Shown here one piece after another: positions 39,128 to 58,880 of a stretch of DNA of 64,000 nt. The notes under the pieces are model-generated. The model worked only from the letters and a program-made list of their open reading frames with translations. It was not told the origin of the DNA and did no database searches. This stretch comes from Candidatus Aminicenantes bacterium (GTDB lineage Bacteria; Acidobacteriota; Aminicenantia; Aminicenantales; Saccharicenantaceae). The stretch spans positions 45,559 through 109,558 of the forward strand of contig CAWDTC010000021.1 in the NCBI GenBank assembly GCA_963805045.1, written 5' to 3'. Both the position numbers and the translations under genes were made by a program. The stretch's first letter is position 1, and the number at the start of each line of letters is the position of its first letter.

Positions 39128-39260
39128 CCGGTCTTCCCAGGCATCAGGAAGCTCTTGACTTTGCCGGAAAATCTGTTCTATATCTTTCCTCATAGAGATC
39201 CTGATGAGAGCCGTGCGGGCCGGGGTCCGCGCGGCGGCGTTCAGAAGAGGAGGAGGTGTC

Positions 39261-42002
39261 ATGAGAGCGAAGAGTGTTGTTCTCGTCGCCGCCCTGCTCC
39301 TGGCGCTCGTTTCCTGGGGCCTCGCCCAATCCAAGGAAACGGGAGCCATCCAGGGGACGGTGACCGACCAGGACAAGGCCCCCTTGCCCGGCGTCACGGT
39401 GACCATCTCGAGCCCCAAGATGATGGGCACGCGGAGCGCGGTCACGAACGCCTCGGGCGGCTTCCGGTTCCCGGCCCTGCCGCCGGGGACCTATGAGGCC
39501 AAGGTCGAGCTCCAGGGCTTCAAGACCTACATCCAGCAGAACATTCGTCTGGAAACGACCATGAGCCTGAGCCTCGAGATCGTCATGACCCCGAGCACCA
39601 TCGAGGAGAAGATCACGGTCGTGGCCAAGTCGCCGACGGTCGACGTCAAGTCCTCCGAGACGGCCTCGGTCACCCTGAGCGACGAGATCCTGCGGAACAT
39701 CCCCTACAGCCAGTTCACGGCCGACATCGTCAACCTGGCCCCCGGGGTCACGAACAACGTCGCCTACGGCGCCTCGCAGGACACGGGCATCGCCTATTCC
39801 ATGGACGGCGTCAACGTCGCCGACCCGGAGGCGGGCTCGGCCTGGGTCTTCCTCGACCACAACATCATCGAGGAGGCCAAGGTCATGGGCGTCGGCCTGC
39901 CGGCCGAATACGGGAACTTCACCGGCGTCATCTTCAACCTCATCACCAAATCCGGCGGCAACAACTTCTCCGGCCACATGGAGGTCGATTTCCAGGGCAA
40001 GAAAGGGGATTTCCCGAAGGGCCTCTGGCAGACGGACAACAACCAGGCCTTCATCAACGATTTCCCCGACCTGACCTCGCCCCTCTCGAAGCTCTTCGAC
40101 GCCGACGTCCACCTCGGCGGGCCGATCAAGAAGGACAAGCTCTGGTTCTATGTCGGGCTCCAATGGTACCGGACCCAGGACTACCCGACGGGGTTCCCTG
40201 CCGCCGTCGACTACAAGCAGCCCCACTCCTTCTTCAAGCTGTCCGCGCAGCCCTCGCCCTCGACGCCGATGACCCTGTCGGTCGAGGTCGACACCTATAA
40301 CGGCGTCAACCGGGACGGCAGCGCCACGGTCCTACCGGAAGCGACGGTGACGCAGAAGTCGCCCGAGGTCGTGGCCAACTTCACCCTGACCCACATCTTC
40401 AACCCCAAGACCTTCATCGACGTCAAGGCCGCCTACTTCTGGGGGTATTATTACCTCGAGCCGGCGCAGGGACGCGATGTCAACTCCCATTTCAACATCA
40501 CCGATAACCTGCTCACGACCAATGCCATGCTATTATTATCAGGCCGACCGCGACCGCATCCAGGCCAACATCAGCCTGACCCACTACGCCGAGGACTTCA
40601 TCAAGGGCAACCACGACTTCAAGTTCGGCGTCGAGGTCGAACGGTCGCACGCCCGCAGCCGCTACGGCTTCACGGGCGCGAACCACATGTACTACATCGA
40701 CTATCCGGGGTACTATTCCGCCGGGCCGCAGGGCCAGTACCTGGCCTACCAGTACACCGGGTACGACAAGAACACGAGCTACATCCGGGCCGAGGCCTTC
40801 GCCCAGGACGCGTGGCAGCTCACCAAGCGCTTCAACCTCAACGTCGGCCTGCGCTTCAGCCACAACTGGGGCTTCGTCAAGGGCGTCAGCGGCTCTATTT
40901 ACCAGACGACGCGCCTCGCGCCGCGGGTCGGCTTCACCTTCGACATCCTCGGCGACAAGACGACGATCCTCAAGGCCCACTACGGCCAGTTCACCGAGGC
41001 CATGCTGACGGCAGAGATCGACATGCTCAACCCGACCTCGGCCTTCAGCGACTACATCCGGTATTACTTGGGACAACGAAGCCGGCCAGTACGTGGCCGT
41101 TCGACACGACGCCCGCACCGACCTACCACCTCGCCGACGGCATCAAGCACCCCTACATGGAACAGTTCACGGTCAGCGTCGAGCGGGAGCTGTTCAAGGA
41201 CGCCTCGGTCTCGGTCACCGGAATTTGGCGGTCGTGGCATGATTTCCTCTTCCACTACGACCGGGCCACGACCTGGGACCCCGTCACCTTCTACATCTCC
41301 GAGCTCGCCGATCAGCCGGTCACGGTCTACGACCGGACCTCGGCCAGCGACGCGCACGACCTCTGGATCCAGAACACCGTCCCCGGAGAGAACCCGGCTC
41401 AGAAATACTGGGGCCTCGAGTTCCTGTTCAACAAGCGCTTCTCCAACAGGTGGCAGGTGCTGGCCTCCTACGTCTACTCCCACGCCACCGGAACGCTGAA
41501 TAACAGCTTCGGCTCGGGCCTCGGCTGGGCGGGCAGCGTCGACAACCCCAATATGTGGGTCAACGCCAGCGGCACCTTAGTCAACGACCCGACGCACATG
41601 ATCAAGGTCCAGGGGACCTACGTCCTGCCCTGGGGCATCTACTTCAACGCCTATTTCCAGGGCATCACCGGGAACGCCTGGACGACGACCTACCGGTCGT
41701 CCTACCTCACCCAGGGCCGGGCGGTCGTCTTCATCGAGCCGCGCGGGTCGCACCACTATCCGATGGCCAAGACGCTCGACATCCGGCTCGAGAAGACCTT
41801 CCTGATGGCCAAGAAGTACCGGCTGGGGTTGATGCTCGACGTCTTCAACCTCTTCAACGACCACACCATCACGTCGTGGGGGACGCGCTACGGCAACGGC
41901 GCCGACTGGATCCCGGACGAGTACCCGTCGACCGATGGGCACGACCTCTACGGCATCATCAACCCGCGCCAGGCCCGGGTCGGCATCCGGCTCATCTTCT
42001 GA
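39261..42002 (+). CDS. TonB-dependent receptor with an N-terminal CarboxypepD_reg domain, with about 3 frame breaks (near 40530, 41068 and 41093)
   Basis: Signal peptide, GAIQGTVTD..PLPGVTVTI..TNASGGFRFPALPPGTY, plug-like region, beta-barrel, and a terminal ..RQARVGIRLIF. The middle third is in ORF 40477-41499. TTGACT, 18 nt, TATATC at 39155-39184 is a possible promoter. Confidence 0.85.
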   Translation: MRAKSVVLVAALLLALVSWGLAQSKETGAIQGTVTDQDKAPLPGVTVTISSPKMMGTRSAVTNASGGFRFPALPPGTYEAKVELQGFKTYIQQNIRLETTMSLSLEIVMTPSTIEEKITVVAKSPTVDVKSSETASVTLSDEILRNIPYSQFTADIVNLAPGVTNNVAYGASQDTGIAYSMDGVNVADPEAGSAWVFLDHNIIEEAKVMGVGLPAEYGNFTGVIFNLITKSGGNNFSGHMEVDFQGKKGDFPKGLWQTDNNQAFINDFPDLTSPLSKLFDADVHLGGPIKKDKLWFYVGLQWYRTQDYPTGFPAAVDYKQPHSFFKLSAQPSPSTPMTLSVEVDTYNGVNRDGSATVLPEATVTQKSPEVVANFTLTHIFNPKTFIDVKAAYFWGYYYLEPAQGRDVNSHFNITDNLLTTNAMLLLSGRPRPHPGQHQPDPLRRGLHQGQPRLQVRRRGRTVARPQPLRLHGREPHVLHRLSGVLFRRAAGPVPGLPVHRVRQEHELHPGRGLRPGRVAAHQALQPQRRPALQPQLGLRQGRQRLYLPDDAPRAAGRLHLRHPRRQDDDPQGPLRPVHRGHADGRDRHAQPDLGLQRLHPVLLGTTKPASTWPFDTTPAPTYHLADGIKHPYMEQFTVSVERELFKDASVSVTGIWRSWHDFLFHYDRATTWDPVTFYISELADQPVTVYDRTSASDAHDLWIQNTVPGENPAQKYWGLEFLFNKRFSNRWQVLASYVYSHATGTLNNSFGSGLGWAGSVDNPNMWVNASGTLVNDPTHMIKVQGTYVLPWGIYFNAYFQGITGNAWTTTYRSSYLTQGRAVVFIEPRGSHHYPMAKTLDIRLEKTFLMAKKYRLGLMLDVFNLFNDHTITSWGTRYGNGADWIPDEYPSTDGHDLYGIINPRQARVGIRLIF

Positions 42003-42433: not shown

Positions 42434-42438
42434 GCCGT
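42417..42438 (+). repeat. Left copy of the exact 22-bp direct repeat GCGGAAGAGGAGAATGAGCCGT
   Basis: Identical to 58879-58900 in the same orientation. Confidence 0.95.
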
Positions 42439-42899
42439 CAATCTTCGGTCAGGACGTGCGTTTCGTATTCGGCTTCGAGCCTGAGCTTGTGGGTCCGTTC
42501 CTGCCCGGCAAGGAACTCGAAGACTTTCCGGTGCGCCGCGAGTTCCGGCCTCCGGGCCAGGCCGGCGTAGAGATCTTCGGCCTTTTTCTCTTTCCGGGCC
42601 GCGAAAATAAGAAGTTCTTGAAACGTCATGTCGGGCGCGAGCGGCAAGTCCGCCAGGGCGTCCGTGAGCCCCAGATCCGGTACGGGAGCCGCGGCCGCTC
42701 CCTTGGGCGGAGCGACTTTTATTTTCTTCAGGAGGCGGCGGTGCTTCTCTTCTTCGCTCTTGAGCTCGAGGAGGAGGTCCCGCAGGCCCGGCGTCGCGGC
42801 CTGGGTGGCCATGCGGGCGTAGCCCCGGGCCGCCTCGACTTCCCGTTCAACGGCGAAAGCGAGGACATCGCTCATGCTCTCGAAACGGCGGTCAGACAT
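42438..42899 (-). CDS. Ferritin-like / rubrerythrin-family domain protein
   Basis: Start MSDRRFESMSDVLAFAVEREVEAARGY at 42899 after GGAAGGAGG. ExxH-like helices (ELKSEEEKHRRLL; LAGQERTHKLRLEAEYE). Confidence 0.6.
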   Translation of the reverse strand: MSDRRFESMSDVLAFAVEREVEAARGYARMATQAATPGLRDLLLELKSEEEKHRRLLKKIKVAPPKGAAAAPVPDLGLTDALADLPLAPDMTFQELLIFAARKEKKAEDLYAGLARRPELAAHRKVFEFLAGQERTHKLRLEAEYETHVLTED

Positions 42900-43042
42900 T
42901 CCCGTACCTCCTTCCCATGATCGTGACCTGTGCCATATCAATGTACCATTCCTAAAGCGAAATCTTCAAGCTCCGGCGAGATCCCCTTCCCCGACTCCCC
43001 CTCCTGTGGCGGGCAAGGGGTGTCGGCGGCCCCAAATAATCG

Positions 43043-43162: not shown

Positions 43163-43638
43163 ATGACATCGGAGCGGACCGCCGTAGAACTCGTGGTCTC
43201 CAAGCACCACGGCCGGAAGAGGTCCCTGATCCCCATCCTCCAAGACCTCCAAGAGCGCTGCCGATGGCTTTCGCCCGAAATCCTCGACGAGGTCGCGGCT
43301 GTGCTTTGCCTCCCCGCGGCCCACGTGTGGAGCGTCGCCACTTTCTACAGATCGTTCAGCCTGGAACCGCGCGGGCGGCATCGCTGCACGGTCTGCATGG
43401 GCACGGCCTGCCACGTCCGGGGGGGCGGCCGTTCTGGAGCATTTCGAGCGCAAGCTCGGCATCCGCGCCGGAGAGACGTCGGCCGACGGAGAGTACACGC
43501 TCGAGCGGGTCAACTGCCTGGGCGCCTGCGCCCTGGCCCCGCTGGCCATCGTCGACGGGCGGTATTATGGACAGATGACCGAGATCAAGGCCGACGCGGA
43601 TCTTGGGGACGTTGAGGGAGGGGAAGGAAAAGGCCTAA
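43163..43638 (+). CDS. NuoE/HydC-like thioredoxin-fold [2Fe-2S] subunit, with two frame breaks (G7 run at 43419-43425; GGGG at 43605-43608)
   Basis: ..IPILQDLQERCRWLSPE..VATFYRSF..CTVCMGTACHVRG, then after correction VNCLGACALAPLAIVDGRYYGQMT..LGTLREGKEKA with a stop at 43636-43638. The full four-Cys ligand set is present. Confidence 0.8.
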
Positions 43639-43647
43639 GGGAAGCCC

Positions 43648-45502
43648 GTGGAACACCATCGGATCCACCTCCTTGTCTGCGCCGGGACCGCGTGCGTATC
43701 CTGCGGGGCCTTCGAGCTCAAGGAGGCCCTGGAGAAGGAAGTCGCGCGGCGAAAGCTCCAGGACGAGGTCCTCGTCGTCACGACGGCGTGCCAGGGGTTC
43801 TGCGAGAGAGGGCCGATCCTCATGGTCCATCCGGACGGCGTTTATTATCAGCGCCTGAAGGTCGAGGACGTGCCCTTTCTGGTCGAAGAGCATCTCGTCA
43901 AGGGACGTCCGGTTGAAAAGTTTGTGTACGTCCCGCCGGCAGAAAAATCCTCCGTCCCCAAGATGGCGGACATCGAGTTCTTCAAGCACCAGAGGCTCAT
44001 CGTCCTGCGCAACCGGGGACGCCTCGACCCCGAGAAGATCGAGGAATACATCGCCTGCGACGGCTACGAGGGCATGGCCAAGGCCTTGACGGCGATGACC
44101 CCGGCCGGGATCATCGCCGAGGTCGCGGCCGCCGGCCTCCGCGGCCGCGGCGGCGCCGGCTTCCCCACAGGCAAGAAATGGGCCCTCTGCCAGCAGGCGC
44201 AGGCGGCGCCGAAATACCTGATCTGCAACGGCGACGAGGGCGACCCGGGCGCCTTCATGGACCGGTCAGTCCTCGAGGCCGACCCGCACGCGGTCATCGA
44301 GGGGATGGTCATCGGGGCCAAGGCGATCGGGGCGGCCATGGGCTTCGTCTATATCCGCGACGAATACCCCCTGGCGGTCAGGCGGATGGGCATGGCCATC
44401 CAGCAGGCGAAGGACTACGGCCTGCTTGGCGAGGACATCCTCGGGTCGGGCTTCACCTTCGACCTCGAGATCGTCCGGGGCGCCGGCGCGTTCGTCTCGG
44501 GCGAGGAGACCGCCCTCATCGCCTCGATCGAGGGCCAGCGCGCCTATCCGCGGCAGAGGCCGCCCTATCCTGCCCAGTCCGGCCTGTGGGGGAAGCCGAC
44601 CGTGATCAACAACGTCGAGACGTGGGCCAACGTCCCCTCCATCATCCGCCGCGGCGCCGCCTGGTTCTCCGGCATGGGGACCGAGACGAGCAAGGGGACG
44701 AAGATCTTCTCGCTCGTCGGCAAGATCAACAACACCGGGCTCGTCGAGGTGCCGATGGGCATCCATCTGCGCGAGATCATCTACGGCATCGGCGGAGGGA
44801 TCCCCGGCGGCCGGGAATTCAAGGCCATCCAGATCGGCGGCCCTTCCGGGGGCTGCATCCCCAAGGACCTCCTCGACCTCCCCGTCGATTACGAGAGCCT
44901 GACCAAGGCCGGGGCCATGATGGGCTCGGGCGGCATGATCGTCATGGACGAGGACACCTGCATGGTGGACATCGCCCTCTACTTCCTGCGTTTCATCGAG
45001 GAGGAATCCTGCGGGAAATGCGCCCCTTGCCGGATCGGCACGCGCCAGATGGCCGGGATCCTGGCCCGCATCGTCGCCGGCGAGGGCAGCGACGAGGACC
45101 TGAAGCGGCTCGAGGAGCTGGCCCTCGTCGTCAAGCCGGGATCGCTCTGCGGCCTCGGCCAGACGGCCCCCAATCCCGTCCTGTCCACGCTGCGGTATTT
45201 CCGGGACGAGTACCGGGCGCACATCACGGACCGCTGCTGCCCCGCCCTCGTCTGCAAGAACCTGATCACGTATTTCATCGAGCCGGAGAAATGCGTCGGC
45301 TGCCTCCTCTGCCTCAAGAATTGCCCGACCAAGGCGATCTCCGGGCGAGTCGAAAGAAGTCCACGTCATCGACCAGGCCCTCTGTATCAAGTGCGGGGCC
45401 TGTTTCAACGTCTGCCCGAAGAAGGTCCGGGCCGTCTCGAAATACACGGGAGAGAAGGGCCGGGCGCTCGCCGGCCGGGCCGGGAAACCCGTGAAGCCAT
45501 GA
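43648..45502 (+). CDS. NuoF/HydB-like FMN- and NAD(H)-binding subunit with an N-terminal [2Fe-2S] thioredoxin-like domain and a C-terminal 2x[4Fe-4S] ferredoxin domain, with one frame break near 45350
   Basis: GTG start. LLVCAGTACVSCG..CQGFCERGP; GLRGRGGAGFPTGKKW; ICNGDEGDPGAF; ESCGKCAPCR; CVGCLLCLKNCP; and after correction CIKCGACFNVCP. Its stop overlaps the next ATG. Confidence 0.85.
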
Positions 45503-47787
45503 CCATCACCATCGACGGCCGGACGATCGCCTTCGAGGGGCGGCCCATGATCCTCGAGCTCGCCCGGGCCAACGGGATCGACATCCCTTCGCTCTGCGAC
45601 CATCCCGTGCTCGAACCGTACGCCGCCTGCCGCCTCTGCCTGGTCGAGGTCAAGGGCCGCCGGGGCTATGTTCCGGCGTGCAGCACGGCCGCCGAGGAAG
45701 GCCTCGAGGTCCGGACGGCGACGCCGGAGCTCGCGGCCCTGCGGCGCGGGATCCTCGAGCTCATCCTGGCCGAACACCCCAACGCCTGCCTCATCTGCGC
45801 CGAAAAGAAATCCTGTGACGACTACAAGTCGACGATCCGCAAGACAGGCGAAGTCACCGGCTGCGTCCTCTGCCCGGCCAACGGACGCTGCGAGCTGCAG
45901 CGCGTCGCCGAGGCCGTCGGCGTCGAGCGCGTCCATTTCCCCTCCGCGCGGCGGAAGGGCGAGGTCCGGCGGGACGACCCGTTCATCGACCGGGACAACA
46001 GCCTCTGCATCCTCTGCGGCCGCTGCGTCCGCGTCTGCCACGAGGTGAGAGGGGCGACGGTCCTGACCTTCGTCTCCCGCGGCTCCGAGACCGTCGTCGA
46101 CACGGCCATGAGCCGGCGTCTCGTCGAATCGGGCTGCCGCTTCTGCGGCGCCTGCGTCGACGTCTGCCCCACGGGCTCGCTCTCCGAGCGGGCCGTCCGT
46201 TACGTGGGCCTGCCCGATACGGAGAACCCGGCGCTCTGCCCGTTTTGCGGCCAGGGCTGCAGTCTGACGATCGGACTCAGGGACGGCCGGATCCTCGGCT
46301 CCGCCCCCGACCCGAACGGGGCCGCGAACTGCGGCCAGGCCTGCGTCAAGGGGAGGTTCCTGGTGAGAAGCGCCGTCGACCATCCACGCCGCCTTCTCCG
46401 GCCGATGGTCCGCAGGGAGGGCCGGCTCGAGGAGACGAGCTGGGACGAGGCATTGGCGGCCGCGGCGGGGCGGCTGGCTGACATGCCGGCCGGGACGTCC
46501 GCCGTGGCCATGTCCGCGCAGAGCTCCTGTGAGGACCTCTTCGTCCTCCAGCAGTTCGCCGCGGAGATCCTCGGCGCGGGAGCGTTCACGGCTCCCTGGA
46601 ACGGTTCGGTGGCCGCCGCGCTTCGCGGTCTCGGCGGAGCGGCGCGGCCGGCGGTCCCCATGAACGTCCGGTTGTCCGATCTCGCGCGGCGCGGGCGCTG
46701 TCGTGAACTTCGGCGAGGACTTGCCCTTCACCCAGCCGATCGCGGGCGTCGAGGTCACTCGGGCGGTCTGGCACGGGGCCTCCCTCGTGAACGTCGCCCT
46801 CGAAGGCGCCCGGCCTTGCGGCCAGGCCTGCGTCGAGGTCGACCTCCCGTCGGGAGAAGTGACGAGATTCCTTTCGGTCCTGGCCGCGCTCGTCCTCAAC
46901 CGCCGCGGCCGGGCCTCCGTCAAGGGCGCGGGAAGTGTCAAGTTCAAGGCCGGCCTGAAAGCGCTCGATCTGGCCGCAGCGCGCGCCGCGCTCGGGATCT
47001 CCGAGGAGAAACTCGCCGCGATCCCCCGGGCGCTCGAAACTCCCGGGCCGGTCTTCTTCCTCGTCGGACCCGCCTTCCTCAAGGCGGCCGGCGGGCGGAG
47101 CGGGCTGGCCGCCCTCTGGAACCTGGCCGTCCTCACGGGCGGTCGGGTCGTTCCGCTCGACCCCGAAGCCAACGTGCGCGGCGGACTCGAGATCTCCGCC
47201 GCGTTCCCGTCGAAGGCCGCCATGGCCGAGTCCCTGGTCGCGGCCGCCGCCGGGCGAGAGATCCGGGCCCTGTACATCGCGGGACCTTTCCCCAAGTTGG
47301 AGCCGGGCGCGGCCGAACTCGTCATCTTCCAAGGAAGCTATGACGCCGGGAACGCCGAAGCCGCCGACATCGTCTTCCCGGAGACGACGTCATTCGAATC
47401 GGAAGGGACCTTCGTCAACATCGAAGGCCGCTCCCAGCTCTCCCGCCGAGCCGTCGAGCCGCGGGGCGACGCCAGGCCCGGATGGGCGATCTTGGGGAGT
47501 TGGCCGCGAAGATGGGCCGGACGGATTTCGTCCCCTCCTCGGCCGCCGGCATCAGGAAGGACATCGCCCGCGCCGTTCCCGCCCTGGGCGGGCTGGCGGC
47601 GGACGCCGTCCCTCCGGAGGGCGTCTTCCTGGCCGAGGAGCCGAAGACGGCCGGATTCATCGCCGGAGGCAAGGAGGCTCCGGGCCGAGGCGCGGAGACG
47701 GCTCCGGCGCGGCGGGACCCGGATGATTACAAGGGTCTGAACCTGGCCCTTGAGACGAAGAGCCTGAGGCTCGTGCGAGGACGATGA
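45499..47787 (+). CDS. NuoG-like Fe-S subunit with a degenerate molybdopterin-oxidoreductase-like C-terminal domain, with at least 3 frame breaks
   Basis: MTITIDGRTIAFEG..CRLCLVEV (2Fe-2S), CILCGRCVRVC and CRFCGACVDVCP (4Fe-4S), and CPFCGQGCS..NCGQACVKGRF (MopB-type cluster). It continues in ORFs 46703-47740 and 47482-47787. I could not see a Cys/Sec-His catalytic pair. Confidence 0.75.
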
Positions 47788-48621
47788 TGCCCAAGATCCT
47801 GGAGCGACGGCGCCTGGTGCCCAACTTGCACCTCATCGAGGTCCACGCCCCCGAGGTGGCCAGGAAATGCCGGCCCGGGCAGTTCGTCATCGTCATGCCC
47901 GACGAGAAGGGCGAGCGGATCCCTCTGTCGATCGCCGACTGGGACACGGAACGGGGCTCGGTCACGGCCGTCTTTCTCGTCGTCGGCACGACGACGCGGA
48001 AGCTCGCCGCGCTCGGCCCCGGCGCCGAGGTCCCCGTCTTCGTCGGCCCGCTGGGCCGTCCCTCCGAGATCGCCGCGTTCGGAACGGTCGTCCTGGCCGG
48101 CGGCTGCTTCGGCATCGGGGCCCTCTGGCCCGTGGCCCGGGCGCTCAAGGCGGCCGGGAACCGCGTCATCGCCCTCCTCGACGCCAAGGCGGACTATCTC
48201 GTCTACTGGAAGGACCGCTACCTCTCGGTCTGCGACAAGCTCCTGTTCTCGTCGCGGGACTATGCCCTCGGCTCGAAGGAGTTCGTGCCCGGGCCGCTCG
48301 CGGCGGTCCTCAAGGCCGAGGCGCCGGTGGCCCGGGTCATCGCCGTCGGCTGCACCTATCTCATGTACGCCAGCTCCCAGGCCACGCGTCCGCTGGGCAT
48401 CAAGACGATCGTCAGCCTGAATCCGATCATGGTCGACGGGACGGGCATGTGCGGCGCCTGCCGCTGCACGGCGGCGGGCAAGACCAAGTTCGCCTGCGTC
48501 GACGGGCCGGACTTCGACGGCCACGAGGTGGACTGGGACGAGCTTTTCGCGCGGCGGAAATCCTACTTCGACGACGGAGGTCCGCTCGCTCTGCCAATGG
48601 GAGGAGCGCGAGCTCCCTTAG
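47784..48621 (+). CDS. nfnA: NfnA / sulfide-dehydrogenase-beta-like FAD and [2Fe-2S] subunit; the 3' end depends on a frame correction near 48575
   Basis: MMPKILERRRLVPNLHLIEV..RPGQFVIV..RIPLSIAD..MVDGTGMCGACRC..KFACVDGPDFDGHEVDW. With a +1 correction it ends EVRSLCQWEERELP at 48619-48621. Uncorrected, the ORF ends at 48761. Confidence 0.8.
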
Positions 48622-48757
48622 GACGAGGGACGAACAAGGCATGGCCGAGGACAAGAAGGAAAGAGCTGGCCCCGGAAGAAAAGGCACGGCTCCGGGCCGG
48701 GTTCGAGAAGGAATGGCGCAAGGAGCTCCGCAAGGTCGCTTCCGGTCAAAGGAGCGG

Positions 48758-50149
48758 ATGAAGGGCGCCCGCCAGAAGATGCCGGAACGCCCGCCGGATG
48801 TCCGCAACCGCGATTTCAAGGAGGTCAACCTCGGCCTGACGCCGGAGATGGCCCAGGAGGAGGCCCGGCGCTGCCTCGACTGCGCCAATCCCCAGTGCGT
48901 CACCGGCTGCCCCGTGTCCATCGACATCCCGGGCTTCGTCAAGCTCATCGAGGCCGGGCGACTTCCTCGAGGCGGCCTGGAAGCTCAAGGAGACGAACTC
49001 GCTGCCGGCCATCTGCGGCCGCGTCTGCCCGCAGGAATCCCAGTGCGAGGAAGTCTGCACGCTCAAGAAGGCCACCGGGATTTCCGTGGCCATCGGCAAC
49101 CTGGAGCGCTTCGCGGCCGACTTCGAGCGGGGCAGCGGCTCCCTGAAGATCCCGCCCCTGCCGCCGCCGACGGGAAAGAAAGCGGCCGTCATCGGGGCCG
49201 GGCCGGCGGGGCTGACGGTCGCGGGCGACCTGGCCAAGCTCGGCCACAAGGTCACGATCTTCGAGGCCCTCCACGAATCGGGCGGCGTCCTGATCTACGG
49301 CATCCCCGAGTTCCGGCTCCCCAAGGCCATCCTCAAGGCCGAGGTCGATTACCTGCAGGCGGCTCGGCGTCGAGATCCGGACGAGCTTCGTCGTCGGCCT
49401 GACCGCGACGATCGACGACCTGCGGGCCGACGGCTACGAAGCCTTCTTCATCGGCTCGGGCGCGGGACTGCCGAACTTCATGAAGATCCCCGGGCGAGAA
49501 CCTGGTCGGCGTCTACTCGGCCAACGAATACCTGACGCGGGTCAACCTCATGCGGGCCTACGCATTTCCCGAGCTACGACACGCCGGTCTTCAAGGCCAG
49601 GACGGCGGCCGTCATCGGCGGCGGGAACGTCGCCATGGACTCCGTCCGCACGGCCAAGCGGCTGGGCGCCGAGCGGGCCGTCATCGTCTACCGCCGCTCG
49701 CGGACCGAGATGCCCGCCCGGATCGAGGAGATCCACCACGCCGAGGAGGAAGGGATCGAGTTCCAGCTCCTGACGACGCCCGTCCGCTACTTCGGGGACG
49801 AGCACGGACATGTCAGGGCCATGGAATGCCAGAAGATGGGGCTCGGCGAGCCCGACGCTTCGGGCCGGCGGCGCCCCGTCCCGATCGAGGGCTCGGAATA
49901 CACGATGGAGGTCGACCTCGTCGTCTGCGCCATCGGCCAGAGCCCCAACCCGCTCATCCCCCAGACGACGCCCGGCCTCAAGGTCGGCAAATGGGGGAAT
50001 GTCGAGGTCGACTGGACGACCATGGCGACCGAGCATCCCGGGCATCTATGCCGGCGGCGACATCGTCCGGGGCGGGGCGACGGTCATCCTGGCCATGGGA
50101 GACGCCCGGGCTCGCGGCCGCCGAGATCGACAGGTATCTTTGCCGCTGA
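48758..50149 (+). CDS. nfnB: NfnB / GltD-like NADPH-dependent oxidoreductase subunit (FAD, 2x[4Fe-4S]), with about 6 frame breaks
   Basis: MKGARQKMPERPPDVRNRDFKEVNLGL..RCLDCANPQCVTGCPV..ICGRVCPQESQCEEVC..AAVIGAGPAGL..IGGGNVAMD..IYAGGD..AAAEIDRYLCR. The reading steps +1 near 48958, 49366, 49498, 49576, 50032 and 50106. Confidence 0.85.
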
Positions 50150-50359
50150 CCTCGGCCGAGGACCTGAACGACTTTTATAAAGATCCTCCGCCAGACGATA
50201 TTCTTCCTTGATATCGGCAGGGACAGGGGGATCCCTCCCTGGCGATGTTCGAAGCGGTCCGGTGCCTTTCGAAGAAGGCGAACCCGTCCCCCGTCATCGA
50301 GCAAAAATCGTCCGACCCATATCTGGATACGGCAATATGGTTTTGCTCGTCTCAATGCA

Positions 50360-50737
50360 TCAAACACCAATTGAAGTACGGTCATCATTTTCTCGATGAA
50401 AAACTGCCAGATAACAGTCGCTCAAGTAAGTCCTTCGAGCGCTCCCGCCACAGCAATCCGCAAGGGCCGACAGAACGAACATGTGCTCTTCGTTGGGCTT
50501 CAGCTTGCTTTTCTTCGTCCGTCGCGTCTGCCGTCGCTTTGACCATAGCGATGAACCCAATACGTTGTATGGGCCGCGACAGCAAGGAGCAACACCGATC
50601 AGGGTCAGGAGGATCCAGTCCGGAATCACCCACCGGGAGACGTTCAGCTTGACCCCCCACTTGAGTATCCCGAGCACCAACACGACGGCTCCGCATGCCT
50701 CCGCCAAGAACTTGATAAGCGCTCTCCAATAGCTCAT
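50360..50737 (-). CDS. Hypothetical membrane protein, probably broken and continuing toward about 50150 in other frames
   Basis: 125-aa ORF with two hydrophobic helices and a basic linker. Protein-like stretches in two other minus frames follow it (..FDALRRAKPY.., ..PADIKEEYRLAEDLYKS). It is the first gene of the low-GC island. Confidence 0.3.
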   Translation of the reverse strand: MSYWRALIKFLAEACGAVVLVLGILKWGVKLNVSRWVIPDWILLTLIGVAPCCRGPYNVLGSSLWSKRRQTRRTKKSKLKPNEEHMFVLSALADCCGGSARRTYLSDCYLAVFHRENDDRTSIGV

Positions 50738-50797
50738 CTTGACCTCTGGTCAATTGTCATGAGACGAGGCTCCTCCGGCCCATCTCACGCTGATCCC

Positions 50798-51375
50798 CTA
50801 TGAAAAGCCTCTCGCCAAGACTGCCCCAGCCAACAACGGAGTTTCTTGGGCCTTGCACGCTCCCCTTAACGTATCAGCGAAGTGCCATGGCGTCAAGTCG
50901 CCAAGCGAACCGTCCGGCCGGAATTCGTTGTCATCTTCGCGCTACTTCTCTATCGTCTCCGGAGCGTCCTCCATTGACAAGAACCCATTCCCATTCAGGC
51001 ATGTATCCCGAAACGGGCCGTTGACCGACCCGACTGATATTATCGATTCTCGTTAAGGCCCGGCACCGAAGGCCGTCAAAGAGGCTATCGACGACAAAAT
51101 CCATGCTCCATTAGGCGTTAAGTCGGTTCCTCTCCGGCCGGGCTACCCAACGGCTACCCGTGGCATGCCGACGGGAACGCTTGCGCCTCAGGATGCTCGA
51201 CACGTTCCCGCCTCTGGGCAGGCTTCAGAATATTATTGAACTGCCGGTTCTCCTCCTCCCGTTACCTCAAGCAGGGCGAAACGCATTCCTTGATTTTCCC
51301 GACCGGGTTTGCTATACATTTGTTGGGCCTTTTAGGAATCGTGCTTTTCCCCAAATTCTTCGCTTCAGAAAATGA
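50798..51375 (-). mobile_element. Decayed, internally deleted IS3-family transposase relic (OrfA tail plus OrfB fragments)
   Basis: Minus-strand fragments in shifting frames: AQQMYSKPGRENQGM; REEENRQFNNILK (leucine-zipper end of OrfA); LRRKRSRRH..RPERNRLNA*WSMDFVVDSLFDGLRCRALTRIDNISR; FRDTCLNGNGFLSMEDAPETIEK*REDDNEFRPDGSLGDLTPWHFA. The DDE core between them is missing. A TAG sits where the conserved Trp of ..IE.WR.DYN.. belongs. Confidence 0.75.
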
Positions 51376-51397
51376 ACCGAGAATCAGAAGGAGGAAT

Positions 51398-52686
51398 ATG
51401 GTGGCTGATAAATCGTACAATCCATTTGAAATAGCCCAAGCTCAGTTCGACAGAGTGGCTGATCTTCTCGATTTGGACAAGGCGACCCGGGACTTGCTCC
51501 GTTATCCTCTGAGGGAATACCATTTCAGCATCCCCGTTCGCATGGACGACGGCAAGGTCCGGATATTCAGGGGGTTCAGGGTTCAGCATAACGATGCGCG
51601 CGGCCCCGGCAAAGGGGGAATCCGTTTCCATCCGATGGAAAATGTCGATATCGTTCGTGCCCTCGCGATGTGGATGACGTGGAAATGCGCGGTGGTCGAT
51701 ATCCCGTTGGGCGGAAGTAAAGGCGGCGTCGTGTGCGATCCGCACAATTTGAGCCCCCGAGAGCATGAACAGCTCTGCCGCGGCTGGGTCCGCCAGATCG
51801 CCAAGAATGTCGGTCCCCATTTGGATGTTCCGGCTCCCGATGTGATGACGAGCCCGCAACGATGCTGTGGATGCTCGATGAGTTCGAGACGATCCATGGC
51901 GGCAAGTATCCCGGTTTCATCACCGGCAAGCCGGTCAGCATCGGAGGCTCGCAAGGCCGGACGGAAGCGACCGGCTACGGAGTTGTCTTCACGCTCAGGG
52001 AAGCCCTCAAAGATCTGAATCTGAAGGCCGAACAGACTCAAGCCAGTGTCCAGGGATTTGGCAACGTGGCCCAATATGCGATTGAACTGTACCAGCGGAT
52101 CGGCGGGACCGTGACCTGCGTTTCATGCTGGGATCAGGCAGATAAAAGGTCCTACAGCTATCGCAAGAAGCAAGGCGTCGGTCTCGAAGAGCTCTTGAAG
52201 ATCACGGATGCCTTCGGCGGCATTGATCAAAGCGAAGGCCAGGGAGATCGGCTATGAAATACTGCCCGGCGAAGCCTGGATCGAACAGGACGTCGACATT
52301 CTCATCCCGGCCGCTATCGAGAATCAGATCACCGTCGAGAACGTCAACAAAATCGGCAAGCGCGTGAGGATCATTGCCGAAGGGGCCAATGGGCCGACCA
52401 CACCCGAAGCCGACGCCGTGCTCAGGAGCGGGATATTTTCAGGATTCCGGACTTCCTGGCGAATGCCGGCGGCGTGACGTGCAGTTACTTTGAACAAGTC
52501 CAGAGCAACATGAATTATTACTGGGAGAAAGACGAAGTGCTGGCCAAGCTGGATGCCAAAATGACGGCGGCCTATATCGAGGTCCGGGAACTTTCAAGAA
52601 AAAAGAAACTGAATATGAGAGATGCCGCCTATGTCATCTCCATCAATCGGGTCGCTCAGGCATGCCGGGATCGTGGCTGGGTATAG
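51398..52686 (+). CDS. gdhA: Glutamate dehydrogenase (Glu/Leu/Phe/Val dehydrogenase family), with at least 3 frame breaks
   Basis: AAGGAGG then ATG at 51398. [12 protein letters not shown] and [18 protein letters not shown] (catalytic Lys block). Pieces 51862-52257, 52208-52477 and 52474-52686 follow. The first break looks like a lost A in CAAACG near 51858. Confidence 0.85.
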
Positions 52687-52760
52687 CCATTCCGTCCCGG
52701 ACAGATTATGCGGAACTTCAGCGATGCTTGATACAATCGAGACGAGGGGGCTCGAATTCA

Positions 52761-54514
52761 ATGAACAAGCCAAATCAATGGCCATCGGGGGGGCATGACA
52801 TCCAAGAGTTTCAGGGGGAGTTTTTCGATCCCAACCGACGCTTGACCTCGATCGGATCGGGCTCCATCGGCGCCAAGGCCAGCGGATTGGCCTTCATCGA
52901 CGAGGTCTTGAAATCAAAGCTCAACTCCCAGGATTCCGGGCAGATTCAAGTCAGCATTCCTTCCTTGACGGTCATTCGCACCGATGTCTTCGATGCGTTC
53001 CTGAAGCGAAACGGCCTGACCGACATGGCCTATTCAGAATCGGCCAACGACGTGATCGCCCACGCTTTCCAAAAGGCCCTCTTGCCCGCCGAGATCCTCG
53101 GCGACTTGCGCGGCTGATCGAAAAAGTCCACACGCCGCTGGCCATCAGATCTTCCAGCATGCTGGAAGACGCGTTCAATCAGCCCTTCGCCGGCATTTAT
53201 GTCACGAAGATGATCCCCAACAACCAGCCGAGCCCCGATGTCCGCTTTCAGAAGCTGATGGAAGCCATCAAGCTCGTCTACGCCTCCACGTTTTCAAAAT
53301 CGGCCAAGGATTACCTCAAGGCGATCAGGCGTTCCCTGACGACGAAAAGATGGCCGTGATCATCCAGGAGGTGGTCGGTTTGCGTCATGCGGATCGTTTC
53401 TATCCGAACATCTCGGGCATAGCAAAATCGTACAATTTCTATCCTATCGGCCGCTCAAGGCCTGAAGATGGCATGGCCAGCCTGGCCTTGGGCTTGGGAA
53501 AAACGATCGTCGACGGCGGAACATGCTGGACTTACTCGCCGGCCTATCCCGGCATCAGCGCCCCGTGGCCTCGGCCGGCGAGCTCATGGAACAGACTCAA
53601 GACGAATTCTGGGCCATCAACATGGGAAAGCCCCCGGCCTATGACCCTCATTAAAGAAACCGAGTACATGGTGCAGTCGAATCTCTCCGATGCGGAGGCG
53701 GATGGCACGCTGAGCAACATCGCCTCGGTTTATGATGTCCAGGAGGACAGGATTTCCATGGGACTTGACCGCGAAGGGCCGAGGGTGCTCAACTTTGCCG
53801 GCTTGCTCGTCCTGAAAGGAGTTCCCTTGAATGACGTGATCAGTTCTCTCTTGAACATATCTCAACAGGCTCTCGGGGCGCCGGTGGAGATTGAATTTGC
53901 GGCGACGTTCAACCCCTCATCGTTTCGGATTTCTGCAGGTCAGACCGATGGTTGTGCCCGGCGACGAAATTGACATCGCTGAAGAAGAACTCAAAGGGGA
54001 AGACGTCTTCTTAGCGTCCAAAAATGTTTTGGGGAACGGGATCATCGAGACAATCCGGGACATCGTCTACGTCAAGCCGAAAGAGTTTGAAGCCAAGTAC
54101 TCTCCGCGCATCGCTCTGGAATTGGAGACGGTGAACAGAGGACTTCTTGACAAAGGACGGCCTTACTTGCTCATTGGATTCGGCCGATGGGGGAGTTCCG
54201 ATCCCTCGGCTGGGATACCGGTCGAATGGGGACAGGTCTGCGGCGCCAAGGTGATCGTGGAAGCGACCGGGCCGACGATGAAGGTCGAGCTGAGCCAAGG
54301 ATCGCATTTTTTCCACAATCTCAGCAGTTTCGAAGTCTGCTATTTCTGTGTTCCGTATTCAGGTGAATATTCGATCAACTGGGAATGGCTAAGCCGGCAG
54401 AGGGGTGAACAGGAGACTCAGTTTATTCGCCATGTCGTCTTGCCGACCCCCTTGCAAGTTAAAGTCGACGGAAGAAGCGGCCGGGGCGTCATTCGCACGC
54501 CCCGATCTGCCTAA
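52761..54514 (+). CDS. PEP/pyruvate-binding (PPDK_N ATP-grasp) domain protein, paralogue 1, with at least 3 frame breaks
   Basis: IGSGSIGAKASGLAFI, LAIRSSSMLEDAFNQPFAGIY, MAVIIQEVVG, VEIEFAA.., then a C-terminal module LLIGFGRWGSSDP..SQGSHFFHNL. Pieces 52662-53117, 53159-53359, 53350-53973 and 53891-54514. Confidence 0.75.
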
Positions 54515-54534
54515 GGGAGACATCCATAAACATC

Positions 54535-57500
54535 ATGGACAAATCCGTCGAGAACCTGCTCTACGCTCTCAAAGAGCGGGCCAAAGAGCTGAACTGTCTT
54601 TATGAAGTCGAAGGGCTCTTCAACAAGCCTGATGCGTCCCTAACGGCGATTCTGGAGGGAATCGTCCGTGCCATTCCGGCAGGATGGCAGTATCCGGACG
54701 TCTGCCAGGCAAGAATCACCTACGGCGATCACTCGTTTCAGTCGCCGAACTTCAAAGAGACACCGTGGGTTCAAAGCGCCAATATCACCGTCCAGGACGA
54801 AGTCGTCGGAAAAATAAGCGTCTATTATACCGAAGAGAGACCCCGCCGACGAAGGCCCGTTCTTGAGGGAAGAACGTAAGCTCATCGAGACCATTGCCGA
54901 CCGCCTCGAACGCCGAATCTTCTTCGAGAGATCAAGGTCGTCTTCGAAAAGCAAACGGTTGGCAAGGAACGCGCGGTCAATGTTGGGTCGTCCTCGACCT
55001 GTTGAGAAGGACGGACTTGAAGCTCTTAACGCACGTGACCAGAAAGATGCTCAACTATCTGTCATGGTCCGGGATCGCGGAAGCCAACACGCTGTTGGAG
55101 AAGATCAGCCCCGCCTCGATGACGGATCAAGATGACGTTCTTCAGGGCATGAATCGGCCATCGCTGTCAGAGGCCGCCAACGACTCTGACGAATCTACGA
55201 TGATATTTTCAGGATGGCGAACAGGTACTTGGGCGAGAAGGAAGTCTTGAACAGCATTCAGAAGTGGATCATGGAGGATCGCTCCAATTTTCTCGTCAAG
55301 GTCCTCGAGGATCCCGGTTCAACCCTGGCGCAGATCACCAATGCCATCGAGCGATTTCATCACCTGATCCCTCATGGCCTGAACCTGCCCTCCCCGAGGG
55401 AAAAGGGCTTCCGCGTCTCGCTCATTCGAAAGCTCCTCAACGACGATCTGCACTTCATCAATGTCGCGAAGAAGTATCTTGAGGTCGACGATTTCCATGA
55501 TCTGTTGCACCATATCATCTTCCCGGCGGAGTCAGGGAAGACTCGGCGGCAAGGGCTCGGGCCTGTTTCTGGCGTCCCAGATCTTAAAAAAGTCTACAAT
55601 GGACAATGAACCCTCCGCAAGATCAAAACCCCGAAGACCTGGTATCTCACCTCCGACGGCATCATGAATTTCATCAGCCATAACGACCTCGAAGAGATCG
55701 TGGAACAGAAGTACGAGGATATTGACGCGGGTACGGCAGGAATATCCGTATGTCGTCCATGTTTTCAAGAATTCCTCCCTGCCGCCGAAATCGTCAATGC
55801 GCTCTCGGTCGCGCTTGACGATCTCGGCGAGCGTCCTCTCATCGTCAGGAGCTCGAGCCTCCTGGAGGACCGCATCGGAACATCGTTCGCCGGCAAATAC
55901 AAGAGCTTGTTCATCGCCAACCAGGGCAAAAACGGGAGAGGTTGCCGCGCTCATGGACGCCATTGCGGAAGTGTACGCATCGATCTTCAGCCCTGATCCC
56001 ATCGAGTACCGGATTGAGCACGGCATGATCGATTTCAACGAGGAAATGGGCATCCTCATCCAGGAAGTCGTCGGGAAAAAAGTCGGCCATTATTTCATGC
56101 CGGCCTTTGCCGGAGTCGCCTTCTCTCGCAATGAATTCCGTTGGTCGCAGCGCATCCGAAGAGAAGATGGACTGGTGCGAATGGTGCCGGGATTGGGAAC
56201 GCGCGCCGTCGATCGGTTCAGCGATGACTATCCGATTCTGGTCGCCCCGGGGCAGCCGAACCTCCGCGTAAATGTCACCATCGATGAAAAAATACACTAC
56301 TCGCCGAAGAAGATCGATGTCATCAATTTCAGAGACGAATTCATTCGAGACCATCGAAATCCGAGAGCTTCTCAAGATGTACGGAGACGAATATCCGTTG
56401 ATCCACCAGATCGGCTCCGTCTTTCGGAATGACCGGCTGGACCCGCTCGGACCACTAGGGACTGATTTCGAGAAGAGCCGTCGTCCTGACATTCGACGGC
56501 CTCATCAACAACACGCCGTTCATGGAGCAAATTCGCTCCATTCTCAAGGTTCTCGAAACCGAGCTGGGCAACTCCCGTTGATATCGAATTCGCCCATGAC
56601 GGGACAAATCTGCATCTGCTGCAGTGCCGGCCGCAAAGTCACGCCAAAGCCTCTCAGCCGCCCGCAATTCCGAGGGACGTTCCGAAAGACAGAATCCTTT
56701 TCACGGCCAACCGGTATGTCACGAATGGGACCGTTTCGGGCATCACCCACATCGTTTACATCGATCCGCAAAGATACGGAGAACTGACGAACCGGGCCGA
56801 TCTCCTGGCCGTGGGCCGGGCCGTGAGCAAGCTGAATCAAATCCTGCCGAAACGCCAGTTCATTCTCATGGGGCCCGGCCGCTGGGGCAGTCGAGGAGAT
56901 ATCAAACTTGGCGTGAGCGTTTCCTATTCGGATATCAACAATACGGCGATGATCATCGAAATCGCCCGGAAACAGAAAGACTACGTGCCCGAGCTCTCCT
57001 TCGGCACGCATTTCTTCCAGGACTTGGTTGAGGGCTCGATCCGTTACCTTCCCCTTTACCCGGATGACAGGGGAGTCGTGTTCAATGAGGAATTTCTTGC
57101 GAAATCAAAAAACATTCTGCCCGACCTTCTCCCGGAATATTCTTCTCTTTCCGACACCATTCGCGTGATCGAGCTGGCGGACTCTGCGGACGGTCAGGTC
57201 TTCCAGGTCCTCATGAACGGCGAGAGAGATGAGGCGGTCGCCATCTTGGGGAAATCCTCGGCGGAGACGACCATGGCCGCCGAAAAACCCCGGGAGAGGA
57301 ACCCCAAGAAAAGAGAGACGACGCTCACTGGCGATGGCGCCTCAGCAGCGTCGAACATATTGCGGCCAGGATGGACGCTCAGCGGTTCGGCGTGAAGGCC
57401 TTCTATATCTTCGGGAGCACCAAAAACGCGACGGCGGGCCCTGAAAGCGATATCGACATCCTGATCCATTTCAACGGGACGGACACACAAAGGAAGGATC

Positions 57501-58674: not shown

Positions 58675-58804
58675 TATAACTCAATCCCCGTGACGGAGGG
58701 CCCGTACCCCTTCTCCCATGCCGCGGCCTGCCCCCTCTCCTGCCCGGAAACGGCCTTGCGACGCCCCGGGCATTCTCGGGACAGGGCTTCGGAAAACTAA
58801 GACG

Positions 58805-58880
58805 TGGCGCCCCCGACGGGATTCGGACCCGTGTTGCCGCCTTGAAAGGGCGATGTCCTAGGCCTCTAGACGACAGGGGC
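58805..58880 (-). tRNA. tRNA-Glu (anticodon TTC), CCA encoded, with an atypical T-loop
   Basis: The reverse complement GCCCCTGTCGTCTAGAGGCCTAGGACATCGCCCTTTCAAGGCGGCAACACGGGTCCGAATCCCGTCGGGGGCGCCA aligns along its length with a canonical bacterial tRNA-Glu. The T-loop reads TCCGAAT instead of TTCGAAT. Confidence 0.85.

Follow-up and report, generated by a model that had tools for sequence, protein, structure and literature searches.

A conserved cluster of BfuABC-type and NfnSL-type genes in uncultured anaerobes and a candidate five-subunit ferredoxin-dependent transhydrogenase

A five-gene cluster and its products

We analyzed a 64,000-nucleotide stretch of DNA (the window) from a Candidatus Aminicenantes bacterium (assembly GCA_963805045.1, contig CAWDTC010000021.1, positions 45,559 to 109,558). 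A six-frame reading of positions 43000-50400 of the window yielded five co-directional genes on the forward strand (43163-50149), the same-strand string that a preliminary description of this DNA had claimed: nuoE-, nuoF-, and nuoG-like genes, here assigned to bfuC, bfuB, and bfuA of the Bfu family of bifurcating enzymes, followed by nfnA (nfnS) and nfnB (nfnL) (Table 1). As judged from sequence, the cluster is a widespread, conserved, and previously unrecognized combination of two known bifurcating systems.

The genes are tightly packed. The nuoF and nuoG genes overlap by ATGA (ATG at 45499, TGA at 45500-45502), and nuoG and nfnA overlap within ATGATG (nuoG stop at 47785-47787, nfnA ATG at 47784). 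Both overlaps had been read correctly in the preliminary description, but the gap before the nuoF-like gene, given there as 10 nt, measured 9 nt (43639-47). After frame repair, 19 nt separate nfnA from nfnB (48622-48640). A consensus scan of the nuoG-nfnA junction found no promoter-like or terminator-like site that would split the two sets of genes, a possibility raised in the preliminary description. No nuo membrane-arm genes lie beside the window's cluster or beside the cluster at those related loci that have gene tables; with extra Fe-S domains in the NuoF-like protein and no adjoining nuoA-N genes, the first three genes do not fit the N-module (NuoEFG) of complex I.

The window proteins were rebuilt by hand, and the joins were checked by tblastn with clean orthologues. 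Before repair, the frames were broken by 14 single-base frameshifts (two in nuoE, one in nuoF, two in nuoG, one in nfnA, and eight in nfnB), one of them in a G7 run near 43420. Because orthologue identity persists at 81-93% on either side of each frameshift, and because an unrelated upstream open reading frame (ORF) resembling a TonB-dependent receptor (several single-base frameshifts) and L001, a related contig of the same European Nucleotide Archive (ENA) submission series (the same kind of frameshift errors at 12232-14643), are equally affected, we treated the 14 frameshifts as probable errors of a noisy, unpolished assembly and not as gene decay.

Table 1. Features of the cluster and its surroundings (positions in the window)
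Feature	Position	Strand	Remarks
TonB-dependent-receptor-like ORF	39204..42002		several single-base frameshifts
Ferritin/rubrerythrin-like gene	42438..42941	-	167 aa; EEEKH and QERTH motifs; divergent, 220 nt upstream of nuoE
BfuC / NuoE-like [2Fe-2S] subunit	43163..43638	+	~158 aa after repair; frameshifts near 43425 and 43596
BfuB / NuoF-like FMN/NAD(H) subunit	43648..45502	+	617 aa; GTG start; frameshift near 45346
BfuA / NuoG-like Fe-S scaffold	45499..47787	+	762 aa; frameshifts near 46690 and 47497
Duplicated cluster-binding motif in BfuA	45775..45891	+	candidate extra [4Fe-4S] site
Conserved C-terminal BfuA tail (DPDDYKGLNLALETKSLRLVRGR)	47716..47784	+	ends exactly at overlapping nfnA start
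NfnA / NfnS	47784..48621	+	~278 aa; FAD/NAD(H)-type FNR-like and [2Fe-2S] domains; frameshift near 48576
NfnB / NfnL	48641..50149	+	~502 aa; 2x[4Fe-4S] and FAD/NADPH GltD-like subunit; eight single-base frameshifts
Region of lower G+C	50200..58800		G+C falls from ~0.69 to 0.54-0.57
Glutamate dehydrogenase gene	51236..52686		frameshifted
tRNA-Glu and tRNA-Lys	58805..58964		end of the region of lower G+C

The first two products have the makeup of a Bfu-family core. As in that family, a BfuC is encoded with BfuB: the NuoE-like protein matches Pfam 2Fe-2S_thioredx (E = 3.8e-48). Besides an FMN/NADH domain and the B1 [4Fe-4S] cluster, a BfuB has two additions that nonbifurcating NuoF homologues lack: a thioredoxin-like [2Fe-2S] domain at the N terminus and a 2x[4Fe-4S] ferredoxin domain at the C terminus. 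In the NuoF-like protein of the window, Pfam detected all four of these domain classes (a partial N-terminal 2Fe-2S_thioredx, Complex1_51K, NADH_4Fe-4S, and two Fer4). For BfuB, BfuA, NfnA, and NfnB, solved structures were searched with clean orthologues from locus L002 as queries. Residues 3-590 of L002 BfuB aligned best to 7t2r_B (870 bits), the B subunit of NiFe-HydABCSL, a hydrogenase of Acetomicrobium mobile, in an alignment that takes in both extra Fe-S domains, the GGPSGG loop, and the H..CPA..C segment. Solved bifurcating hydrogenases (HydB) and Stn/NfnABC transhydrogenases supplied the next matches with their B subunits; complex I NuoF and FdsB matched only the central part. On the strength of these domains and full-length alignments to solved bifurcating enzymes, the NuoF-like protein is a true Bfu/HydB-type subunit, as had been claimed from its extra Fe-S domains.

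The NuoG-like protein has Pfam matches to Fer2_4, NADH-G_4Fe-4S_3 (two matches), Fer4_Nqo3, Molybdop_Fe4S4, and Molybdopterin. The predicted clusters are one [2Fe-2S], one His-ligated [4Fe-4S], 2x[4Fe-4S], and the Molybdop_Fe4S4 cluster, followed by a molybdopterin-oxidoreductase-like domain without cofactor. As expected of BfuA, the cluster domains have invariant Cys/His ligands, the individual A1-A5 assignments being made from domains only. Pfam found no match in BfuA to Molydop_binding (PF01568, the pterin-binding domain IV). At the position of the Cys/Sec-His pair of formate dehydrogenase (FDH), the family reads FTAPWNGSVAAAL-like, without Cys or His; the catalytic pair occurs in none of the 12 aligned family members that cover the site (two fusion proteins are gapped there). 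Lacking both this pair and the domain IV that binds molybdopterin guanine dinucleotide (MGD), the protein falls outside the alpha subunits of Mo/W FDHs (FdhA/FdsA). FDH alpha subunits align to it only up to about residue 360, in a match that covers its N-terminal Fe-S part and the opening ~120 residues of its pterin domain. Over its full length, the protein is matched best among solved structures by 7t2r_A, BfuA of NiFe-HydABCSL, with the dead pterin-like domain included. The preliminary description's view of a "catalytically empty" protein is thus borne out, with the Cys/Sec-His motif and domain IV both missing, and by sequence, BfuA is a catalytically dead NuoG/FDH-like protein. Its AlphaFold2 (AF2) model had a mean predicted local distance difference test score (pLDDT) of 70, with the Fe-S region (residues 92-237) and the C-terminal tail below 50, and a Foldseek search of this protein against the PDB returned a generic NuoG/FDH-alpha fold that did not discriminate between candidates.

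Two segments of BfuA stand out. The motif of the His-ligated cluster, H93-x3-C97-x2-C100-x5-C106, is followed by a 24-aa insertion that contains a second motif, E118-x3-C122-x2-C125-x5-C131, and it is this duplication that the double NADH-G_4Fe-4S_3 match reflects. The residues of the duplicated motif are invariant in 27 family members; in relatives of the fused family described below, the Glu position varies, being Cys in L034 (C-x3-C-x2-C-x5-C) and Arg in L019, P0121, and P0207. A. mobile 7t2r_A lacks the insertion, and one segment of it aligns to both motif copies. We hypothesize that the insertion supplies an additional [4Fe-4S] site, which could extend the cluster chain toward the Nfn module. 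At the protein's opposite end, the conserved tail has the consensus DPDDYKGLNLAxExKSLKLVRGR, with key positions invariant in 27 of 27 family members.

The last two genes encode what the preliminary description had called a complete classical NfnAB pair, and the comparison with crystallized enzymes agrees. NfnA contains DHODB_Fe-S_bind, scores 342 bits against the NCBIfam model [quoted passage not shown] (NF004862; cut-off 220), and keeps the [2Fe-2S] motif DGTGMCGACR...FACVDGP; its L002 orthologue scores 289 bits against the small subunit of Pyrococcus furiosus NfnI (5jca_S) and 228 bits against Thermotoga maritima 4ylf_A. NfnB contains Fer4_20 and Pyr_redox_2 and scores 588 bits against TIGR01316 (cut-off 472). 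The L002 NfnB scores 539 bits against T. maritima NfnB (4ylf_B), 523 bits against 5jca_L, and 305-345 bits, less than against T. maritima NfnB, against the GltD-like domain of Stn/Nfn-Bfu. It keeps the GIPEFRLPK arginine, a conserved residue of the Nfn large subunit that sits near FAD N5. The two proteins thus have the features of NfnAB/NfnSL: a small subunit with FNR-like and [2Fe-2S] domains and a large subunit with 2x[4Fe-4S], a GltD-like domain, and the arginine.

Two details of the Nfn subunits deserve mention. By eye, the glycine-rich loop of NfnA (~48090-48110, residues ~103-110) reads (A/G)GC(F/Y)G(I/V)G in the window, L002, L034, and L019, and GGGVG(I/V)A in the crystallized stand-alone NfnA of T. 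maritima and P. furiosus, a difference that may reflect changed NAD(H) binding. NfnB has an N-terminal extension of ~35 aa that is conserved across the family loci. We considered it as a family-specific docking helix, an idea weakened by the finding that the extension aligns with a linker, the one that joins NfnA and NfnB in fused proteins (NCBIfam PRK12778).

Gene order and fusions among relatives

A search with the NuoG-like protein returned 2042 proteins at E <= 0.001, the 120 best being 54-91% identical to the query. The named homologues among these 120 came mostly from metagenome-assembled genomes of Aminicenantes and other Acidobacteriota, and many are annotated as "formate dehydrogenase alpha subunit." The order nuoE-nuoF-nuoG-nfnA-nfnB was found in six of six long contigs (homologues 54-84% identical), with differing flanks. 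A GTDB scan with the full NuoG alignment matched the generic NuoG motif; among the matches listed were one close relative (L008) and L019, L033, and L034, a result that is no taxonomic census. A scan of metagenomes with an alignment of a family-specific 49-residue segment yielded 80 loci, over which hidden Markov models (HMMs) of the five proteins were run. Counting loci with enough DNA to judge, nfnA directly followed nuoG in all 56, nfnB was present in 48 of 48, nuoF lay upstream of nuoG in 52 of 52, and nuoE lay upstream in 48 of 51; all five genes were found in 35 of 37. The overlap of the nuoG stop with the nfnA start was similarly constant, being 1 nt (TAATG or TGATG) at 52 of 60 junctions and 16 nt at 5 more (57/60 in total).

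Clustering of flanking ORFs at the 53 flanked loci brought out no other conserved neighbor (ferredoxin, hydrogenase, or regulator) in more than ~40% of them. The commonest neighbor was a divergent pair upstream of nuoE, a Cache_3-Cache_2/HAMP histidine kinase with a response regulator (21-23 of 53 loci, L090-L169), also present in L002, L006, and L007, which suggests that the regulation of the cluster responds to a ligand in some family members. Because the order is invariant while no flanking gene is conserved, the five genes are the conserved unit, and the arrangement goes far beyond chance. The preliminary description had allowed that the adjacency might be unique to this contig; the survey of gene order that it proposed instead found the adjacency kept, amid unrelated flanks, in all family members examined.

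In some relatives, the junction has disappeared altogether. In L019, a Nitrospirales contig, the NuoG-like protein and NfnA form a single 834-residue ORF. A search with this fusion found at least 120 clusters (90% identity level), 59-99% identical to the query, mostly 820-850 residues long and aligned over nearly its whole length; all 120 have NuoG-type domains together with DHODB_Fe-S_bind, and they come from Planctomycetota, Dehalococcoidia, and Hydrogenedentota. In L019, L088, L089, L170, and L171, the fusions sit in nuoE-nuoF-[G::nfnA]-nfnB clusters. Two types of locus occur: L171 (Dehalococcoidia) and L089 (Hydrogenedentota) have a BfuB of Bfu type with 634-638 residues, that of L171 being of the same type as the window's, and L088 and L170 have a BfuB of ~1040 residues fused to a GltD-like module. 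The tail of unfused BfuA aligns with the segment that precedes the linker of the fusions ([YF]-[KR]-G-[LH]-x-[LI]...[SG]-L-[KR]), and given this homology, the fusion point matches the nuoG/nfnA boundary of the window. Two Phycisphaerales contigs (L033 and L034) have a shorter NuoG-like gene followed by nfnA and nfnB.

The association with Nfn genes reaches further still. An exhaustive search with an in-frame piece of the dead domain yielded few relatives, with 13 representatives at E <= 1e-30, 77 at E <= 1e-10, and 1107 at E <= 1e-3. Distant relatives of 825-877 residues, 30-34% identical in the dead domain, keep the Molydop_binding domain IV, lack the Cys/Sec-His pair, and share the 24-aa-type insertion. 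Two of these had readable contigs (L172 and L174), and nfnA follows in both; L172 has the full five-gene set, and in L174 the contig stops short of any identifiable nfnB.

Some further variants were observed. In the five loci with the 16-nt overlap (L092, L094, L101, and two more of the 60), the nuoG stop is lost and five codons are added (...VRGRRCPRS); this form looks like a possible intermediate toward fused NuoG::NfnA. In the ~1040-aa BfuB (L088 4849-7968, L170 3871-6990, and L034 3772-6906), a complete GltD/NfnB-like module (Fer4_20 plus Pyr_redox_2) stands in place of the C-terminal 2x[4Fe-4S] ferredoxin domain. The variant clusters of Planctomycetota type thus have two GltD-like flavoproteins plus NfnA.

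A proposed transhydrogenase and the alternatives

In enzymes of the Bfu family, a third substrate reduces NAD+ and ferredoxin together, in tight coupling. We propose that the five genes probably encode one soluble, five-subunit, Bfu-type ferredoxin-dependent transhydrogenase to which NfnSL has been added as a module. The architecture would be "ABCSL," as in NiFe- and W-containing Bfu enzymes. BfuB and BfuC would form the FMN/Fe-S bifurcating core, with NAD(H) bound at FMN and ferredoxin at the C-terminal clusters of BfuB; dead BfuA would serve as wire and docking platform for the third-substrate module; and the NfnS/NfnL pair would be the "SL" module, with NADP(H) bound at the NfnL FAD. That FAD would feed two [4Fe-4S] clusters and, via the [2Fe-2S] cluster of NfnS, a second FAD that binds NAD(H). 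Electrons would move between the Fe-S clusters of Nfn and the cluster chain of BfuA, possibly via the extra Cys-motif site or the Molybdop_Fe4S4 cluster. Because NADP(H), NAD(H), and ferredoxin sites are the only ones recognizable in the five proteins, the net role would be NADPH/NADH/ferredoxin interconversion. The roles of BfuBC, BfuA, and NfnSL are carried over from their parent families (PMC9304861, PMC10482914, PMC12018979), and in NiFe-HydABCSL, the dead pterin-like domain of BfuA carries the added subunits (PMC9304861).

The BfuA::NfnA fusions lend support to a single complex. In characterized enzymes, NfnA and NfnB are an obligate heterodimer, and because NfnA is also found fused to BfuA, we argue that all five products assemble together. 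The candidate put forward in the preliminary description, an unusual bifurcating NAD(P)H/ferredoxin complex, thus gains support from invariant synteny, gene overlaps, and fusions. What the sequences show is the domain content, the orthology of each part, the constant order and overlap of the genes, and the fusions of relatives; for the window subfamily, we infer the physical association, bifurcation, wiring, substrates, and direction.

The proposal is drawn from comparative genomics, and several points weigh against it. NfnA and NfnB align over nearly their full length to self-sufficient NfnAB and keep all recognizable cofactor motifs, so they could work alone; the N-terminal extension of NfnB, being shared with the linker of fused NfnAB proteins, is not specific to the five-gene system. 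The fusions belong to a sister subfamily whose NuoG part is only ~39% identical to that of the window. The Fe-S region of BfuA is of low confidence in the AF2 model, so the extra cluster and the wiring stay hypothetical. Finally, Kumar et al. (2023) state that most species have either Nfn or Stn and that Nfn lacks a HydBC partner (PMC10482914).

A rival reading has two independent enzymes sharing an operon, a classical NfnAB co-transcribed with a separate BfuABC because both balance the NAD(P)H and ferredoxin pools, with soluble carriers as their only link. NfnA and NfnB do lie close to self-sufficient solved enzymes, translational coupling of functionally related but separate enzymes is common, and a neighborhood that may be similar has been read in this way: for Margulisbacteria and Saganbacteria, Matheus Carnevali et al. 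[quoted passage not shown] However, BfuABC with a dead BfuA would by itself have no third substrate, because BfuA lacks a catalytic site of its own and the sole conserved neighbors are nfnA and nfnB; it would thus catalyze no meaningful reaction alone (PMC9304861). Separate enzymes would also sit poorly with the BfuA::NfnA fusions of relatives and with an adjacency that is invariant over deep divergence while nothing else is conserved. We consider two separate enzymes unlikely, though less so than the readings that follow.

BfuABC might instead serve a catalytic module encoded elsewhere, such as the SL subunits of a NiFe-hydrogenase as in A. mobile, with NfnAB merely co-regulated. BfuB and BfuA are indeed closest to NiFe-HydABCSL subunits, and in L001 and L004, the cluster has Hox-type NiFe-hydrogenase genes in its vicinity. 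Yet Hox clusters bring their own HoxEFU-like genes and are missing from most loci, and no other conserved partner emerged from the 53 flanked loci, which makes such a remote partner quite improbable. We give even less credence to the NuoG-like protein being an active Mo/W formate dehydrogenase, with the cluster an Fdh-Bfu enzyme beside Nfn. This reading has on its side the name "formate dehydrogenase alpha subunit," given to many homologues by the Joint Genome Institute (JGI), and the presence of Pfam Molybdopterin and Molybdop_Fe4S4; against it, the Cys/Sec-His motif is missing family-wide and domain IV from the window subfamily, FDH alpha subunits align to the N-terminal third only, and the true Sec-containing FDH-type relatives are ~30% identical. 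The least credible reading, that the frameshifts are genuine and the locus a decaying pseudogene cluster in the source organism, has 14 disruptions within 7 kb (8 of them in nfnB) in its favor but is very improbable given that every one is single-base, that amino-acid identity to orthologues is 81-93% across frames, and that unrelated neighboring genes and L001 are frameshifted too.

A separate observation concerns the FDH-type relatives. In L009, L011, L012, L018, L023, L028, L036, and others, the ~30%-identical NuoG/FdhA-like matches of the GTDB scan consist of two adjacent same-strand ORFs with one in-frame stop between them. These look like TGA-encoded selenocysteine in genuine FDH-type BfuA, unlike the dead domain of the window family.

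The proposed five-subunit enzyme shares parts with several known systems and coincides with none. Among characterized enzymes, Stn/Nfn-Bfu and NiFe-HydABCSL come closest. Type 3 Bfu enzymes have extra subunits that carry the third-substrate site and a BfuA with A3/A5 clusters. Their prototype, NiFe-HydABCSL of A. mobile (PDB 7T2R/7T30), provides the best solved matches for BfuA and BfuB and the same layout of ABC plus two extra subunits (PMC9304861). In the window cluster, BfuA has the 2x[4Fe-4S] and Molybdop_Fe4S4 domains, and nfnA and nfnB are constantly attached as genes for candidate extra subunits. The extra subunits of the prototype are instead the small and large subunits of a NiFe-hydrogenase, and its BfuA lacks the 24-aa insertion.

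The Stn/Nfn-Bfu enzymes (NfnABC; Sporomusa ovata, Caldicellulosiruptor saccharolyticus, and Thermococcus sibiricus; PDB 8OH5, 9BOV, and 9N5U) have in common with the window system a HydBC-like BfuBC core, a NuoG-like Fe-S domain, an inactive FdhF-like domain, and a GltD/NfnB-like FAD module for NADP(H). Their substrates, NADPH, NAD+, and ferredoxin, are those that we propose from sequence for the window system. In Stn, an enzyme of three subunits, the GltD-like module is fused to the N terminus of the NuoG-like subunit, bifurcation is lost, and no NfnA homologue is present (PMC10482914). In contrast, the NuoG-like protein of the window has no GltD domain, NfnB is a separate polypeptide from its own gene, and a full NfnA (FAD and [2Fe-2S]) is encoded, which places the cluster outside Stn/Nfn-Bfu. 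The relatives of the window system, unlike Stn, fuse NfnA and not NfnB to NuoG.

Classical NfnAB/NfnSL (T. maritima and P. furiosus; PDB 4YLF and 5JCA) has the same domains, the same Asp/Cys [2Fe-2S] motif, and the same GIPEFRLPK arginine. It is a stand-alone heterodimer without a HydBC/NuoG partner, whereas window-type Nfn is always encoded directly after BfuABC with a stop/start overlap and, in relatives, has NfnA fused to the NuoG-like protein; it does not, therefore, fit the stand-alone type. Window-type NfnA has GC[FY]G where the loop of classical Nfn has GGGVG, and window-type NfnB adds the N-terminal extension. FdsABG (Rhodobacter capsulatus, 6TG9) and Fdh-Bfu share the set of NuoE/NuoF/NuoG-like subunits, and the FdsABG alpha subunit is the top sequence and fold match for the N-terminal Fe-S part of BfuA. 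Fds, however, has an active Mo-bis-pyranopterin guanine dinucleotide (Mo-bisPGD) site with Cys-His and a beta subunit without the Bfu-specific clusters, and the window BfuA has neither catalytic residues nor domain IV.

Class II benzoyl-CoA reductase, Bam[(BC)2DEFGHI]2 (Bam-Bfu), has a HydBC/Bfu-type module in series with a second flavin-based bifurcation module. That second module is HdrA-like, with a W-pterin aromatic-ring reductase plus an electron-transferring flavoprotein (ETF) as the output; in the window system, the second module would be NfnSL, with no evident non-nucleotide substrate site. The benzoyl-CoA reductase is a mechanistic precedent for joining two bifurcation modules and the sole characterized HydBC-type case (bioRxiv 10.64898/2026.04.10.717634). 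Neither a BfuABC-NfnSL unit nor a NuoG::NfnA fusion was described in the full-text literature searched or in the supplement of Schut et al. (2022), in line with the preliminary description, which could not assign the arrangement to a described enzyme.

A more speculative extension of the five-subunit enzyme places two bifurcation sites in series, with the NfnL FAD splitting the electrons of NADPH and the BfuBC site bifurcating again. The high-potential branch would go to NAD+ at NfnS and the low-potential branch through BfuA to BfuBC and thence to NAD+ and ferredoxin, for a net reaction of 4 NADPH + 3 NAD+ + 2 Fd(ox) <-> 4 NADP+ + 3 NADH + 2 Fd(red). Such a tandem would be a "low-gear" transhydrogenase whose ferredoxin-per-NADPH ratio is half that of classical Nfn. 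By our own arithmetic from the Buckel-Thauer physiological potentials, it could reduce ferredoxin with an NADPH pool that is far less reduced, at about -335 mV in place of -390 mV, or reach acceptors at about -680 mV. We put this forward tentatively and think it rather improbable.

Flavin-based electron bifurcation is the route of strict anaerobes to low-potential ferredoxin, and to our knowledge, only four enzyme families are known for it. Current accounts treat Nfn and Stn/Nfn-Bfu as unrelated alternatives for the same transhydrogenase reaction, a picture that a conserved unit of full NfnSL and full BfuABC would change. The unit is spread over Acidobacteriota/Aminicenantes, Planctomycetota, Dehalococcoidia, Hydrogenedentota, and Nitrospirales. 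If the five products form one complex, the Bfu family would gain a new third-substrate module, and class II benzoyl-CoA reductase would be joined by a second natural hierarchical coupling of two bifurcation modules, in a tractable soluble system whose natural fusion variants allow one to ask how coupling stoichiometry is set. A single complex would also mean correcting many database labels of "formate dehydrogenase alpha subunit" on the BfuA scaffold and revising how the metabolism of abundant uncultured anaerobes from sediment and soil is reconstructed. The tandem version, if correct, would be the first to join Bfu and Nfn in tandem and might connect NfnSL with Stn/Nfn-Bfu in evolution.

Surroundings of the cluster

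The divergent ferritin/rubrerythrin-like gene that the preliminary description had placed upstream is present but is no conserved partner of the cluster. In L001, the closest relative, its conservation is high (294 bits), and other loci lack it; L006 and L007 have a ferritin-like gene of a different family downstream of the cluster. With conservation confined to L001, we rejected the gene as a Rub-Bfu-type partner.

At L004 (13909-18289) and L005 (12966-18268), the cluster adjoins genes for an NfnA-NfnB-like fusion protein (~750 aa), for response regulators, and for a histidine kinase that carries an [FeFe]-hydrogenase large-subunit-like domain (Fe_hyd_lg_C + HisKA + HATPase). This neighborhood may be a sensory hydrogenase/redox regulon, and judging by the fused protein, these two genomes hold a second, putatively stand-alone Nfn-like enzyme.

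The region of lower G+C downstream of the window cluster could be an island or an assembly join. Besides the glutamate dehydrogenase gene, it holds long ORFs that by eye resemble PEP/pyruvate-binding kinase-type proteins. Glutamate dehydrogenase genes also flank the cluster in L005, an adjacency loosely compatible with a role in NADPH re-oxidation during amino-acid fermentation.

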